A stretch of 63,990 nucleotides of DNA, filler included, from an uncultured Acidimicrobiia bacterium (GTDB lineage: Bacteria; Actinomycetota; Acidimicrobiia; Spongiisociales; JAOTWH01): the NCBI GenBank assembly GCA_964347285.1. It is 3 parts of 3 records of this genome, joined end to end, with 100 filler letters (N's around TTAATTAATTAA, not from the genome) between each part and the next. Parts side by side here need not be neighbours in the genome. Positions count along the whole stretch, not along the records: positions 27,083 to 53,950 come from CAYFYE010000025.1; positions 54,051 to 63,990 come from CAYFYE010000090.1; 1 more part is not named here. One strand, given 5' to 3'. Shown one piece after another: positions 53,401 to 63,990 of this stretch (within the stretch, counting starts at the first letter, position 1; each line of letters opens with the position of its first letter). The position numbers were made by a program.

Positions 53401-56400
53401 GAGGGCGGCCTTGACCAGCTTGGCCGGCTTGGCCTTGCGGTCGGTGTAGGTCGTCACGCCGATGCGCTCGCCGAGAGCTTCGAGTTGATCGATGGCGGCC
53501 GGTCGCTGCAGGTCGGCCGCCACCAGCATCGGTCTTCGCCCCTTCCCTTTGAGATGGAGAGCCATCTTGGCGGCCGTGGTCGTCTTGCCGGACCCCTGCA
53601 AGCCCACCATGAGGATGGTGAGGGGCGCCTTGGCCGGGGCGGCGAGGGGCGCCGCCTCCCCGCCCAGGGTGGTGATCAACTCCTCGTGGACGATCTTGAT
53701 CACTTGCTGGGCCGGCGTGAGGCTCTCGGTGACCTCGGCGCCCACCGCCCGCTCCCGCACCCGGCCGAGGAGGCTCTTGGCAACGGGCACGGCCACGTCC
53801 GCTTCCAGCAGTGCCAGGCGCACCTCTCTCAGGGTGGCGTCGACGTCGTCTTCCGACAGCCGGCCTTTGCCGCGCAGCCGTTGGAAGACGCCCGAGAGCC
53901 GGTCGGTGAGGGTGTCGAACATCCCTGCGAGTGTATCGACGGGCGGCGCCNNNNNNNNNNNNNNNNNNNNNNNNNNNNNNNNNNNNNNNNNNNNTTAATT
54001 AATTAANNNNNNNNNNNNNNNNNNNNNNNNNNNNNNNNNNNNNNNNNNNNCAGCGATCGACCAACCACTGGATGCTGGCCGGCACGCTACTGCTCTTCGC
54101 CTTCGGTGCTACCCAATGCGACGGCCGTGGGTTTGTGAACCTGGATCACCTCCAGGAGGTGCACCGCTTCACCGACCTCGATGGCGCCGAGTCGCCGTCC
54201 ATGTACTTCATTTTCTTGCAGACGTCGTAATCGAAGCTGCACATGTCCCGGGCCAGTTGGTAGAAGAGCGGTCCCGGCACGGACTGGTGCCCACGGGCGA
54301 TGAACTTCCGACTGGTGGCGTCGCTTGCCTTCGCGGATCCGGCCTAGACGTAGAGGTGGATGTCGGCCTCCTCCATGATCGACATAAAGGTCAGGTACTC
54401 AACAATGGGAAGGTCATCGAAGATGAAGTCCTCCCGGCTGACCTTGAAGGGCTGCATGGAACCTCCGCACACGTAGAGGTGGGCGCCGAGGCTGCGCAGC
54501 TGGCGGAGCTTCTCCTGTGCCGGGATATGTCCCGCCTTGGTCATGCCGGAGGCGGCGAACCGGCTGAAGGGGCGAGCCCAACCCTTGAGCTTGGGTCGGA
54601 ACCCTTCAGCAAGCACCCGAACTGCCGGACCTTGGAAGTAGAGGGAGACCGCGATGCCCTCGAGAGCCGCGCCTAAGGCGAACCCGAGTGGCGAAAGCAG
54701 CTCCGTGAGCCCATGGTCGGAGATGATCATGGCCAATCTGGTGTCTTTGGCCTTCGGGCTTCCCTTCTCGATCAGGAACTGCTGCCCCCTCGCAGTCCTC
54801 TCGGAGGAAAGCAGCACGTGTCCGGTGGCCTGACACCAGGCGGAGATGTCCCACCTGAACGGTTCAAAGTCGTCGGTGAGGAGCTCCAGCACCTCGCCTT
54901 CGTTCATCGTCTGGAGCTCGGTGGCGGCGTCGAACACTACGAAGGTGGTGATGGTCTTACCCGTGCGATCAAGGGATTTCTGGGCTGTGACGGTCTTCAT
55001 GATCGACCTCCCGCTCTGTAGGGGATCCACAATGGCCATGTCACCAGATCCCCGAGAGTCCGACTAGGGCCACTTGACCCCTTGGCGGCGCGGCACCGAA
55101 CTCGACGACCCACGCCGATCACCCATTGATGAGCAGTAATGCTGAGATCCCGCAGGCGCCCGGGGATCGGGCCGTCGGCGCTGGTTGCGAGGCCCAGCGT
55201 CGGAATACTCATCCGCTGCCTCACCATTTCCGCTTGTCTCGCCCGGCCTTTCGAGGGACGTGATCACGGTCGTGTGGTCGGTGCCCGTGCGGCTGAGCGT
55301 CTTCGAGATCGAGGCGCCCACCGGGTTTGCGGTTCTTCCCCTGGACAGAGGGACCCCTTGTGGTGCGTCCCGCCGTTCACTCCCAGCGCTGGGCGACGAT
55401 CTTGCGATCGGTGAAGAACAAGAACGACTCTCCACGCCCATGTACGGCACCGTATCCCGATTCCTTTAGGCCGCCCAGCGTCGCCCACGCCTGAGTCGCC
55501 GGCACACCGACGTTGATGCCGATGTTGCCCACCGGTACCCGTGATTCGAACTCCCGGGCGGTAGGTCCACTCGTCGTAAAGAGCATCGCCGAATGGCCGT
55601 AACGGCTTTGCTCGATGAGCGAGATCGCCTCGTCGAGGTCTGCGGCCGGGCTGATCGAGGCCACCGGCCCGAACACCTCTTCCTGAGCGATCTCCATGCC
55701 GGGAGCGACGCCGTCGAGGATGGTCGGCCCGACGAAGGCTCCGTCGGGCCAGTCGGGAACGTCGGGGTTGCGGCCGTCGAGTAGGGGTACGGCACCTTCG
55801 TCCACTGCCCTATCGATCATTCCGTTGATGCGGTCTCGGTCGCGGTGGGTGACCACCGGGCCAAGGTCGACGCTCTCGTCGAGCCCGTACCCGAGTTTCC
55901 ATCGCGAGGCCGCGTCCACGAACTTGTCCCGTAGCGGTTCGTACGCCTCGCCGACCGGCACCAGGACCGATCCCGCCAGACAGCGCTGGCCGCCGGCGCC
56001 GAAAAACGAGAGGAGCGCCGCGTCAACTACCGCGTCGAGGTCGGTGTCGGGCATGACCACGAAGTGGTTCTTGGCCCCGGTTGCCGCTTGGCCCCGCTTG
56101 CCGAGCGAGGCAGCCTTGGCATACAGCATTGCTCCGACGGGCGTCGACCCGACGAAGGAGAAGCCCTCGGTGTCGGGGTGCTCCATGAGAGCGTTCACTA
56201 CGTTGGACCCGCCATTGACGAGGTTGAGCACTCCGGGAGGGAAGCCGCACTCGTCGATCAACTCGAAGATGCGCATCTGGGTGAGCGGCACCCGCGACGA
56301 CGGCTTGTTGATGTAGGTGCAACCGGCGGCGACCGCATAGGGCAGGTATTCGAGCGGCACCATTGCCGGGAAGTTGAACGAAGGCACCATGAAGAAAACG

Positions 56401-62400: not shown

Positions 62401-63990
62401 GAACTCGGTAACGGCAAATGGCGCTGGGGTCCCAACGAACGCGCTGCCTACGTGGAGATGCACAACCGCCTCGTCGACGTCATTGCCAACACACTTCGGC
62501 GGGTGGGTGACCGCTACGCGGCGATCGGCGCATGGGTGTCGCCCGGGCTCACCCATCGATCGTTCCTTGCCGACGCCGCGCTGCGGATCGGGGAGGGCCT
62601 GCCGGTGACCAGGCGCGGTCCCGACGGCCCGATGAAACTGCGGGGCGCTCTCGATCAGTTACCGGGAGCCGTCACGGTGATGCCGACGATGGGACAGCTC
62701 GACCGGGTCAAGGCCGCACTGACGAAGCGTCTCGCCGGGGAGGGCCGATCGAGCACCCCGGGAGCGGTGAGGGCCGTCTACGCGCGGGGCGATGGGAACG
62801 ACACCCCGCTCGGCCTGCCCGAAGCGCTGGGGCACCTCACCGATTGGCTGGACGCTGTGGTCCTATAGGACGAGCCGCCTACACCGCGGCGGCGAACGCG
62901 GTCAGCACCGCGGGCACATCGCGTTCGAGGACGCCGGGCTCGTAGCCGCCCTCCTGGACGAAGACCGTGGGAAGCCCGAGCCCGGCCAGAGCCGCTCCCA
63001 GCCGCGGGTAATCATCTCGCTCGAGGGCGAGGACTCCATGATCGACGTGGGTGTCGACCCCCAAGGCCACCACGAGGGTATCGGCGCCGTACCGGTGGGC
63101 CGTCGCGACCGCAGCCTCGAGTGCTTCCGAATAAGCCGGCCAGGTGGTCCCGGTCGGGAGCGGAAAGTTGCGATTGGCCCCGTCTCCTTCCCCGGCGCCG
63201 ACCTCGTCGACGTGCCCCAGGAAGAACGGGAAATGCTCGTTGGGATCACCGTGGATCGAAACCGTCAGCACGTCGCCGCGATCCCAGAACACGGTCTGGG
63301 TCCCGTTGCCATGGTGGGTGTCCACGTCGATGATCGCCACCCGCCGTCCGGCGAGCGTCAGCCGGCTGGCGGCGATGGCGCCGTTGTTGAGGAAGCAGTA
63401 GCCGCCGTACACCTCGGGAGCGGCGTGATGTCCCGGGGGCCGGCACAGGGCGTACGCGGCGGGCGCGCCGCCGATGACCGCTTCGGCGGCGGCCGCGGCG
63501 CACGAGGCCGCAGATCGCGCTGCCACCCAGGTTCCGGCCAGGATCGGATCGACGTCGTTGGAGAAACGGCCCATCTCGGCGAGGACGCTCACCGGCTCGC
63601 TCCACGGCGTGTTCGGCAGCGGCCGGATGTAGGCGACGGCCTCGGCGTCCTCCGGGCTCCCGGTGACCTCACGCCAACGGGCGTGGGCATGCTCCAGGAA
63701 AGCGAGGTATCGCTCGGTGTGAACCGTGAGCAGGAGCTCCCGGTCGACCGGGGGAGGCCGGCGCAGCTCGAAACCTCCCACTGCTCCGAGGCCTCTCAGA
63801 ATGCGCTCAGCGCGTTCGGCCACCTCGGCCGGTGGCAGCATCTTTCCGCCGAAGCGGTGGAGTTCCACCGGATCGTGCCGGCGGTGGGACGGGTCGGTGT
63901 AGACGATCATCCACGACTCCTCTCGTCAAGCGGACTGCGGGCTCGGTTTGGGGGCATGACCGCCTTTGTGGGTGGCAGGTTTCCCGAAGG

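Follow-up and report, generated by a model that had tools for sequence, protein, structure and literature searches.

How queuosine and archaeosine are made and salvaged is well charted, and our full-text literature searches found no pathway that destroys their bases. According to passages of PMC11298593, lysine addition by the archaeosine synthase ArcS takes place on preQ0 that is part of tRNA or of a nucleoside but not on the free base, and passages of 10.1101/2023.04.13.536721 describe ArcS2 of Vibrio phage nt-1, which makes dG+ in DNA. The family activities described in the passages of the papers searched act on the preQ0 nitrile. In nicotinate catabolism, an enamidase converts tetrahydro-6-oxonicotinate to 2-formylglutarate. 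Here we describe a bacterial gene cluster with homologues of both enzymes that, judging from homology and gene context, is likely to encode a catabolic pathway for 7-deazaguanines, in which the ArcS core would remove the archaeosine amidine or hydrate the preQ0 nitrile.

The window, i.e., the whole stretch of DNA analyzed, consists of 63,990 nt in three joined parts, along which all positions are counted, and comes from an uncultured Acidimicrobiia bacterium (assembly GCA_964347285.1; genome completeness, 90.5%). It carries the following features:

55377..56855, minus strand: protein of the CoA-acylating methylmalonate-semialdehyde dehydrogenase (MMSDH) family (450.9 bits against a cut-off of 448.5)
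56906..57478, minus strand: AA_synth (PF06684) protein
57543..57561, no strand: 19-bp palindromic operator TGTCWC-N7-GWGACA, between divergent operons
57606..59216, plus strand: cyclic amidohydrolase, dihydropyrimidinase/allantoinase-like, with ExH replacing HxH; candidate pyrimidine-ring opener
59220..59978, plus strand: isochorismatase-family cysteine hydrolase, nearest to N-carbamoylsarcosine amidohydrolases; candidate ureido (N-carbamoyl) hydrolase
60021..61214, plus strand: enamidase homologue of a cluster-specific subfamily (E 2e-105 to 2vun)
61241..61849, plus strand: DUF1989 protein, from the family of carboxyguanidine deiminase; candidate deiminase of an aminopyrrole intermediate
61846..62868, plus strand: stand-alone ArcS-C1/DUF5591 protein, 340 aa (domain, motif, and fold)
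62053..62094, plus strand: ArcS C1 motif PC-x3-KPY-x2-S-x2-H, with Cys71 as candidate nucleophile
62879..63910, minus strand: histone-deacetylase (HDAC)-family deacylase (domain family)
63936..63990, plus strand: 55-nt overlap with contig C117 (G000:C117), beyond which the cluster continues

Joining contigs C90, C117, and C97 yields a cassette of 18 genes, larger than first described. The junction of C90 with C117 had been proposed in the preliminary description and is borne out by the 55-nt overlap; a second overlap of 55 nt joins C117 to C97. C117 contributes an ABC importer (ATPase, permease, and ThiY-fold binding protein), a CN-hydrolase, a first deaminase, and an aldehyde dehydrogenase, which are followed on C97 by a class II aldolase-family protein, a class III aminotransferase, a second deaminase, and GntR. 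The earlier label "nitrilase" for the CN-hydrolase needs correction, as amidase and carbamoylase models score above the nitrilase model. Two more copies of the 19-bp operator lie on C117, so that three copies link the parts of the cassette; a scan of 2.63 Mb recovered three strong sites, all within the cluster and one of them outside the training set. This single operator, which is probably bound by the cluster's GntR, spans both the upper and the ring-opening genes.

The reading frame of the 340-aa protein starts with a 4-nt overlap of the DUF1989 stop. DUF5591 (Pfam PF17884) is the sole domain matched and, as previously noted, sits at its cut-off (26.2 against 26, a marginal pass, over residues 45 to 90), and both ArcS NCBIfam models score far below theirs (24.8/600 and 22.1/440 bits). 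The C1 motif, taken from passages of 10.1101/2023.04.13.536721, is exact in 87 of 87 aligned sequences, in agreement with the earlier claim, and in 120 of 120 among the homologues listed; the ArcS motifs SEP-x-x-VP and YD-x-P are also present. Fold searches retrieved 2q07 as the top match (Z 10.6, rmsd 2.8, 137 residues; next match, 5.4), and hhalign aligned the protein to ArcS C1 with a probability of 99.6% over 156 columns. The assignment to the ArcS catalytic core thus stands as regards motif and fold, but the superposition on the C1 structure covers just ~137 of the 340 residues, the other ~200 being family specific and without an ArcS counterpart. In a viral fold search, the top match was the nt-1 phage ArcS2 (E 6.9e-4). 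Phage sequence searches returned short matches only, in five Sulfolobus virus records, the top ones being spindle viruses that include STSV2_16 (37% over 75 aa), and no viral copy of the 340-aa family was found in IMG/VR. Three longer matches (P0128, P0178, and P0180), considered as fusions, were set aside as apparent frameshift read-throughs or chimeras with no informative fused domain. Within the literature searched, DUF5591 is indeed confined to a single work, in two versions. We propose that the 340-aa protein is an archaeosine amidinohydrolase or a preQ0 nitrile hydratase, with Cys71 as the candidate nucleophile, a role that we assume by analogy to QueF-type enzymes. What counts against this reading is that archaeal ArcS, in the passages of PMC11298593, neither acts on the free preQ0 base nor runs in reverse on tRNA.

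Genes of the cluster accompany the ArcS-like gene in 76 of 80 loci (none in the remaining 4), QueC occurs in 3 of 50 cluster hosts, and a shared set of 9 of 61 relatives contains the cyclic amidohydrolase and the cluster-type enamidase. These patterns, along with the two ring-opening modules described below, support the degradative setting of the ArcS core that was suggested at the outset. The position directly after DUF1989 is kept in 8 of 8 order-level relatives but in 33 of 79 wider loci, and hence this order is typical of the lineage rather than universal. Two alternative ring-opening modules are distributed among the loci, the second of which is oxidative and allantoin-like (PuuE, racemase, amidases, and flavin monooxygenases) and is carried by Alphaproteobacteria, Microbacterium, and some Nocardioides. 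Four of 80 loci carry xanthine dehydrogenase, all of them without the enamidase module, and 36 of 80 a methyltransferase, which falls outside the proposed scheme and has only remote relatives in PDB (best E 7e-16). Neither radical-SAM genes, such as one for the ArcS partner RaSEA, nor members of the DpdA/TGT family recur among the 80 ArcS-like loci. In two outlier loci, the ArcS-like gene has an asparaginase-like gene beside it, and in one of the two a barbiturase-family gene as well.

Genes for nucleoside handling help to narrow the substrate. In 5 of 50 genomes, Qng1, an IU nucleoside hydrolase, and a BMP nucleoside importer are located within the cassette; in a sixth (L119), the set is among the cluster genes on a different contig, and Qng1 used as metagenome bait gave a single match, with an ArcS-like gene adjoining. 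The Qng1-bearing cases are scattered over three or more separate branches in a tree of the ArcS-like family, a quick tree without bootstrap that serves only to show dispersal. Among the genus of the Microbacterium host, 250 other genomes have neither Qng1 nor the ArcS-like gene. A single recruitment event in Actinomycetota could nevertheless account for the Qng1-cluster link. The window's genome lacks Qng1, and so do 34 of 50 hosts. The cluster version matches PF10343 above cut-off and retains the catalytic and deazaguanine-ring residues K199, D231, Y232, D298, and W302 and the terminal Tyr. By pairwise alignment, the residues of the StQng1 cyclopentenediol pocket (Y93 and W94) and 5'-phosphate site (R80 and K233) are replaced; a cluster-specific pocket was rejected, since the same changes occur in noncluster actinobacterial Qng1. 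In 2 of 4 Kaistia genomes, one or more IU hydrolases and a PF12822 ECF S-component lie 14 to 15 kb downstream of the ArcS-like gene, the latter matching the CD3073 family below cut-off and so lending weak support.

No tRNA-guanine transglycosylase (TGT) was found in 4 of the 5 hosts with Qng1 inside the cluster, so the freed base cannot enter their tRNA. The catabolic nucleobase setting of the preliminary description is retained; since hosts that lack TGT carry Qng1 within the cluster, the substrate can be specified further, as a 7-deazaguanine. The same genes bear on the alternative of salvage in place of breakdown, by which the ArcS core and its neighbors would turn foreign deazaguanines into preQ1 for tRNA while the ring openers serve another substrate. 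Qng1 is a known salvage enzyme, and the window's genome has tgt with queA (its single TGT match adjoins queA) and no QueC, QueD, or QueF above cut-off, as had been reported. We hold this alternative to be most improbable, given that TGT gave no match in 11 of 50 cluster hosts, including four with Qng1 in the cluster, and that the upper and ring-opening genes are joined both by their common operator and by their co-occurrence in the 9 relatives. With TGT in 38 of 50 hosts and in the window's own genome, salvage can coexist with the cluster.

Both deaminases are nearest to MTA/SAH (adenine-type) deaminases, as would suit an alternative in which 7-deazaadenine antibiotics (toyocamycin, sangivamycin, and tubercidin) are detoxified or used, with the ArcS core hydrating the 7-cyano group and the deaminases acting at C6. 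Xanthine dehydrogenase in some loci is compatible with this, and the lower pathway would serve equally. Yet Qng1 retains D298, which discriminates against adenine, and the aminotransferase and deformylase suit preQ1-type side chains, which these antibiotics are not known to carry; this makes such a role highly improbable.

The importer binding protein has ThiY-class thiamine-precursor binders as its closest solved folds, at 16 to 18% identity, so that the fold does not fix the ligand. Its resemblance to ThiY and a thiamine binder raises the alternative of thiamine-pyrimidine catabolism, which would lead from formyl-aminomethyl-pyrimidine through the acid and an opened ring to malonate semialdehyde and in which the ArcS core would hydrolyze the 2-methylpyrimidine-derived acetamidine. 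The deformylase, aminotransferase, aldehyde dehydrogenase, deaminase, and MMSDH suit that chemistry equally. We regard this alternative as very unlikely: clusters hold Qng1, a nucleoside hydrolase, and a nucleoside importer, and the allantoinase/racemase module and enamidase would point to a bicyclic substrate that passes through a lactam intermediate. TenA was not found in the host genome, and no Rfam riboswitch, including the TPP riboswitch, was detected at gathering score in seven loci, although a purely degradative route might need neither.

The cluster enamidases are 70 to 86% identical among themselves and 44 to 49% to other enamidases, and Lys replaces the Glu of the 2vun GEVGLG stretch. 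In control clusters unrelated to this one, too, AA_synth is found with enamidase and MMSDH. This trio would point to an enamine-carboxylate lactam, of the kind that C7-C8-N9 of a 7-carboxy-7-deazapurine would yield, and is left unexplained, as is Qng1 in hosts lacking TGT, if another fused heterocycle (a pterin, modified purine, or lumichrome-like compound) were degraded with the ArcS core as a general amidine hydrolase. The deaminases, ring openers, PuuE, racemase, and monooxygenase are generic enough for that, and both the ~200 residues without an ArcS counterpart and the two outlier loci are in keeping with it; on balance, we consider it unlikely.

On the basis of 7-deazaguanine catabolism, we propose the following route. 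The ThiY-fold importer would take up the base; in some hosts, the BMP importer would act with Qng1 and IU nucleoside hydrolase, which free it. Side chains would then converge on 7-carboxy-7-deazaguanine: Cys71 of the ArcS-core protein would attack the carbon of the C7 amidine or nitrile, and either water or the loss of ammonia would resolve the intermediate (giving ADG or preQ0 from archaeosine, or ADG from preQ0), the CN-hydrolase would convert amide to acid, the HDAC-family deacylase is proposed as the deformylase of N-formyl-preQ1, and the aminotransferase and aldehyde dehydrogenase would take preQ1 to the acid. An FAD oxidoreductase, missing from the window's assembly, may cleave queuine. 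The regulon would thereby target archaeosine, preQ0, ADG, preQ1, and formyl-preQ1, with queuine added in many hosts. ATZ-type deaminases would next produce the 7-deazaxanthine. The cyclic amidohydrolase and carbamoyl hydrolase would strip the pyrimidine ring, the aldolase-family protein would decarboxylate, and DUF1989 would deiminate the product to 5-oxo-pyrroline-3-carboxylate, which is a homologue, with a five-membered ring, of the substrate of enamidase. The enamidase homologue is proposed to open this pyrrolinone carboxylate to 2-formylsuccinate, and MMSDH to convert the latter to succinyl-CoA and CO2. The oxidative, allantoin-like module would substitute for this ring-opening stage, from the cyclic amidohydrolase to MMSDH, in its carriers. 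The gene set thus offers one putative enzyme for most natural 7-deazaguanine side chains plus a full ring-opening route.

We see an even chance for a more general version, namely, that the pathway mineralizes all 7-deazaguanines (tRNA queuine, archaeal-tRNA archaeosine, and the phage-DNA bases of dG+, dPreQ0, dADG, dPreQ1, and fdPreQ1) with one entry enzyme per side chain and the ArcS core acting hydrolytically, opposite to biosynthesis. As part of the same joint claim, such chemistry would explain why dCDG and not dG+ is found in Sulfolobus virus STSV-2, given that DpdA and ArcS2 are all that this virus encodes. The cluster also revives the idea, dropped in the phage paper, of an ArcS core converting preQ0 toward CDG. 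DUF5591, a DUF1989 subfamily, and AA_synth gain proposed roles, and every step has a candidate enzyme open to testing in cultured carriers of the cluster, among them Microbacterium aquimaris KCTC 19124, Herbiconiux moechotypicola, Kaistia dalseonensis, and Actinocorallia aurantiaca. Eukaryotes depend on bacteria for the micronutrient queuine; if the proposal is true, bacteria burning it would constitute a sink in soils, sediments, and sponges.

Among known systems, the cluster protein shares the C1 fold and the three motifs with the ArcS alpha subunit C1/AF0587 (2q07). Unlike canonical ArcS (TGT-like, C1, C2, and PUA), it lacks the TGT-like, C2, and PUA domains, is bacterial, and has catabolic neighbors in hosts mostly devoid of QueC. 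Viral ArcS2 (Vibrio phage nt-1 and Sulfolobus virus STSV2_16) is likewise a stand-alone C1 core, but at 185 to 226 aa and beside DpdA, whereas the 340-aa protein has no linked dpdA and no viral or Dpd-island context. Queuosine salvage (Qng1; QueK-QrtT-QueL) has Qng1, IU nucleoside hydrolase, and importer in common with some clusters; it ends in TGT and tRNA, while the Qng1-bearing clusters, mostly in TGT-less hosts, proceed to ring openers, and no radical-SAM QueL recurs in cluster loci. Nicotinate catabolism (Eubacterium barkeri and Azorhizobium) combines enamidase with AA_synth and MMSDH as the cluster does; molybdenum hydroxylase, present in 2 of 3 control loci, is absent from window-type loci, where no pairing of it with a ring reductase was found beside the enamidase. 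Purine and pyrimidine degradation (the allantoin route, Rut, and dihydropyrimidinase plus carbamoylase) follows a similar logic of deaminase, cyclic amidohydrolase, and carbamoyl hydrolase, but all cluster matches to its enzymes fall below NCBIfam cut-offs, and purine breakdown has no role for the side-chain enzymes or the enamidase trio. Beside archaeal tRNA and phage DNA modification, the cluster would thus represent a third, degradative setting for the ArcS core.

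The focal gene encodes a free-standing version of the archaeosine synthase (ArcS) catalytic core:

61846-62868, plus strand: stand-alone ArcS-C1/DUF5591 protein of 340 aa on contig C90 of the host genome (G000), recognized by Pfam, motif, and fold

The preliminary description had reported that this ORF carries the exact ArcS C1 motif with DUF5591 at cut-off, and both points hold: the motif, as defined in passages of 10.1101/2023.04.13.536721, occupies residues 70 to 83 and is kept in all 120 homologues listed (453 found), and Pfam DUF5591 matches residues 45 to 90 at 26.2 against a cut-off of 26. 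The two ArcS NCBIfam models give weak matches only. The AlphaFold model (pLDDT 96.5) retrieved AF0587/2q07 as its top fold match (Z 10.6 over 137 residues; runner-up, 5.4) and also matched ArcS2 of Vibrio phage nt-1, and profile comparison with 15 ArcS-type proteins reached 99.6% over 156 columns and added the common motifs SEP-x-x-VP and YD-x-P. Because motif, fold, and profile match agree, the protein is a genuine ArcS C1 core with about 200 extra residues of its own. Further stand-alone DUF5591 proteins of 258 to 375 aa (P0187, P0227, P0202, P0204, and P0215) have N-terminal Y-x-P and YDxP motifs in common with this family.

The window is assembled from several contigs, with the focal gene on C90, which had been proposed to join C117; a 55-nt overlap was found, and the chain extends through such overlaps on to C97. 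The resulting cluster begins with a minus-strand block (MMSDH and AA_synth), followed by a plus-strand block (cyclic amidohydrolase, isochorismatase-family hydrolase, enamidase, DUF1989 protein, and the ArcS core) and a minus-strand HDAC-family deacylase; the remainder comprises a three-gene ABC importer, CN-hydrolase, deaminase 1, aldehyde dehydrogenase, class II aldolase-family protein, class III aminotransferase, deaminase 2, and GntR. A 19-bp palindrome occurs at window position 57543 and at C117:69, with no further strict copy in 2.63 Mb. A matrix derived from such sites detected a third strong copy, outside the training set, ahead of the aldehyde dehydrogenase gene. Of the 80 related loci, 18 have copies between genes, and 7 of those loci or contigs had supplied training sites. 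With these shared palindromes, the parts of the cluster thus resemble a single regulon. In the cyclic amidohydrolase (window 57606-59216), all 37 copies checked have D-S/T-E-A-H-P-G-C-Y where an HxH metal motif is usual. At the cluster edge lies a TusA-DsrE fusion gene (window 54344-55039, minus strand), which recurs weakly and is probably unrelated.

A GTDB scan confirmed 191 relatives, of which the best 80 were analyzed; these come from Actinomycetota, Chloroflexota, Alphaproteobacteria, and a few others, and the host's nearest named relatives in the tree are Acidimicrobiia. Cluster genes are present in 76 of the 80 loci. Neighbors within 10 kb, by our own gene calls and BLAST labels and with many loci ending at contig edges, are aminotransferase (54 loci), deaminase 2 (49), DUF1989 (46), enamidase (43), aldolase-family protein (41), AA_synth and a phytoene-dehydrogenase-like FAD oxidoreductase (38 each), isochorismatase (37), amidohydrolase, deaminase 1, and a methyltransferase (36 each), CN-hydrolase (23), and HDAC (18). 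No close homologue of the FAD oxidoreductase or the methyltransferase turned up in the host assembly. Two lower modules alternate across these 80 loci: 53 have the hydrolytic type seen in the window, and 15 have an oxidative type with HpaB-like and flavin monooxygenases, PuuE, a racemase, and amidases. Among 61 order-level genomes, the cyclic amidohydrolase and the cluster-type enamidase each occur in exactly the 9 with the ArcS-like gene; 5 others carry a different enamidase, which accompanies AA_synth and MMSDH in all 3 of these that were inspected and also a molybdenum hydroxylase in 2 of the 3. As kin are not independent, these tallies are descriptive. Of unpublished genomes, G011 is included in the 61-genome tallies, and G083 (locus L051) in the 50-genome and 80-locus counts and the tree.

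In two genomes (L018:949-9236 and L020:948-9271), the enamidase and DUF1989 genes of the cluster are separated by an inserted type III-B CRISPR (cmr) gene block. Members of a sister clade of the ArcS-like gene pair with a gene for a 556-aa asparaginase-like protein (L077:11020-13790 and L083:11044-12720); in L077, a barbiturase/AtzD-family gene and a P450 come next; this pairing is possibly a third lower route or serves another function. An anaerobic variant is suggested by the Chloroflexota loci L072, L075, L085, and L116, which also contain xanthine dehydrogenase, dihydropyrimidine-dehydrogenase-like genes, an OYE flavoenzyme, aldehyde:ferredoxin oxidoreductases, IlvD, and UbiD. Acidimicrobial loci L135 to L137, with AA_synth, enamidase, and MMSDH, a molybdenum hydroxylase in two and an F420-type reductase in one, perhaps encode an F420-dependent nicotinate-like pathway. 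The sole plasmid match is an oxidative-type cluster on a 494-kb Rhizobium plasmid (L142; CP021373.1, 122097-139780). Oxidative-type clusters of Microbacteriaceae (L110:11120-12184, L111:5291-6727, and L126) contain genes of the MmgE/PrpD and tartrate-dehydrogenase-like types, as would suit a pathway that ends in a small polycarboxylate.

In line with the earlier claim that the host lacks preQ0 synthesis genes, no QueC, QueD, or QueF over cut-off and no Qng1 was found in its genome (90.5% complete), where queA-tgt is present. A clue to the substrate comes from a recurring cluster neighbor in other hosts, Qng1 (Pfam Q_salvage, E 3e-44), beside an IU nucleoside hydrolase and a BMP nucleoside importer. 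A search of 50 hosts (those of 50 of the best 80 loci) found it in 16, and it lies inside the cluster in five, none of them G011 or G083: three Microbacterium, one Nocardioides, and one Actinomycetota MAG with the window's hydrolytic module. In an Aeromicrobium (L119), a separate contig holds it together with cluster genes, and the cluster Qng1 used as bait gave one metagenome match, from which the ArcS-like operon diverges. QueC occurs in only 3 of the 50 hosts and TGT in 38 (one weak match with a stop codon left out). The Microbacterium and Nocardioides hosts with Qng1 in the cluster have no TGT match; the freed base therefore cannot enter tRNA. Another 250 genomes of that Microbacterium genus yielded neither Qng1 nor the ArcS-like gene. 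Three Acidimicrobiia that carry the cluster, G045, G073, and G075, have the same importer-Qng1-hydrolase module elsewhere in the genome, and a fourth, G079, lacks it. Among the relatives examined, the BMP permease adjoins Qng1 in 3 of 4 with the cluster and 0 of 6 lacking it. Where the cluster is absent (L099, L101, L102, L105, and L107), the neighbor of Qng1 is a pfkB-family kinase that may act on queuosine or ribose. By the residues given in parts of PMC9881137, cluster Qng1 retains K199, D231, Y232, D298, W302, and the terminal Tyr and lacks Y93, W94, R80, and K233; non-cluster actinobacterial copies show similar changes. These retained and replaced residues suggest that it is probably a guanine-type 7-deaza-nucleoside glycosylase, with a side-chain range that they do not fix.

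We consider it quite likely that the cluster mediates 7-deazaguanine catabolism; the individual reactions given here are predictions. Natural side chains noted in passages of 10.1101/2023.04.13.536721 are amidine, nitrile, amide, carboxyl, aminomethyl, and N-methyl or N-formyl aminomethyl, or none. The cluster offers putative entry enzymes matched to them: the ArcS core would act on amidine or nitrile, the CN-hydrolase on amide, the HDAC-family deacylase on formyl, and the aminotransferase plus aldehyde dehydrogenase on aminomethyl, with the FAD oxidoreductase as a candidate for queuine and N-methyl-preQ1. Within 7-deazaguanine catabolism, the ArcS core is about as likely to remove the archaeosine amidine as to hydrate preQ0. 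Its Cys71 would form a thioimidate, as in QueF-type chemistry, resolved by water or ammonia loss; the parts of PMC11298593 consulted on archaeal ArcS make no mention of a cysteine.

Deamination would be followed by the action of the amidohydrolase and carbamoyl hydrolase (the latter of the isochorismatase family and closest to N-carbamoylsarcosine amidohydrolase), leaving an aminopyrrole dicarboxylate. This may be decarboxylated by the aldolase-family protein, whose weak matches include PhtC and Mlr6791, the latter with a decarboxylase role. The DUF1989 protein, from the family of carboxyguanidine deiminase (passages of PMC11271267), would then deiminate the product to a five-ring homologue of tetrahydro-6-oxonicotinate, the compound that enamidase opens to 2-formylglutarate (passages of PMC7356986 and PMC9304392). 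The cluster's enamidase would correspondingly yield 2-formylsuccinate, which the MMSDH-type enzyme could convert to succinyl-CoA, and the step order may differ. AA_synth, which accompanies enamidase outside the cluster too, is the one enzyme family in the window's cluster that has no predicted role in this scheme.

Against this scheme, archaeal ArcS, according to sections of PMC11298593, ignores free preQ0 base and shows no reversal on tRNA; the roughly 200 extra residues might, at a guess, supply a small-molecule pocket. Also counting against it, the folds closest to that of the importer belong to binders of thiamine precursors, both deaminases most resemble adenine-type enzymes, the methyltransferase is unexplained, 4 of the best 80 loci (of 191) lie outside the cassette, and the majority of hosts, including that of the window, lack Qng1.

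No 7-deazaguanine breakdown pathway was found in the literature searched, mostly outside subscription journals, and the passages of PMC11130926 and PMC11477304 describe only synthesis and salvage; the component families are known, and that search met neither the pathway nor a degradative ArcS core in print. Among the nearest phage sequences is STSV2_16, whose virus carries dCDG, termed puzzling in passages of 10.1101/2023.04.13.536721, where the authors first suspected that ArcS turns preQ0 into CDG. The 340-aa protein is a member of the ArcS C1/DUF5591 family, yet by architecture or context, it is neither a canonical ArcS nor a viral ArcS2.
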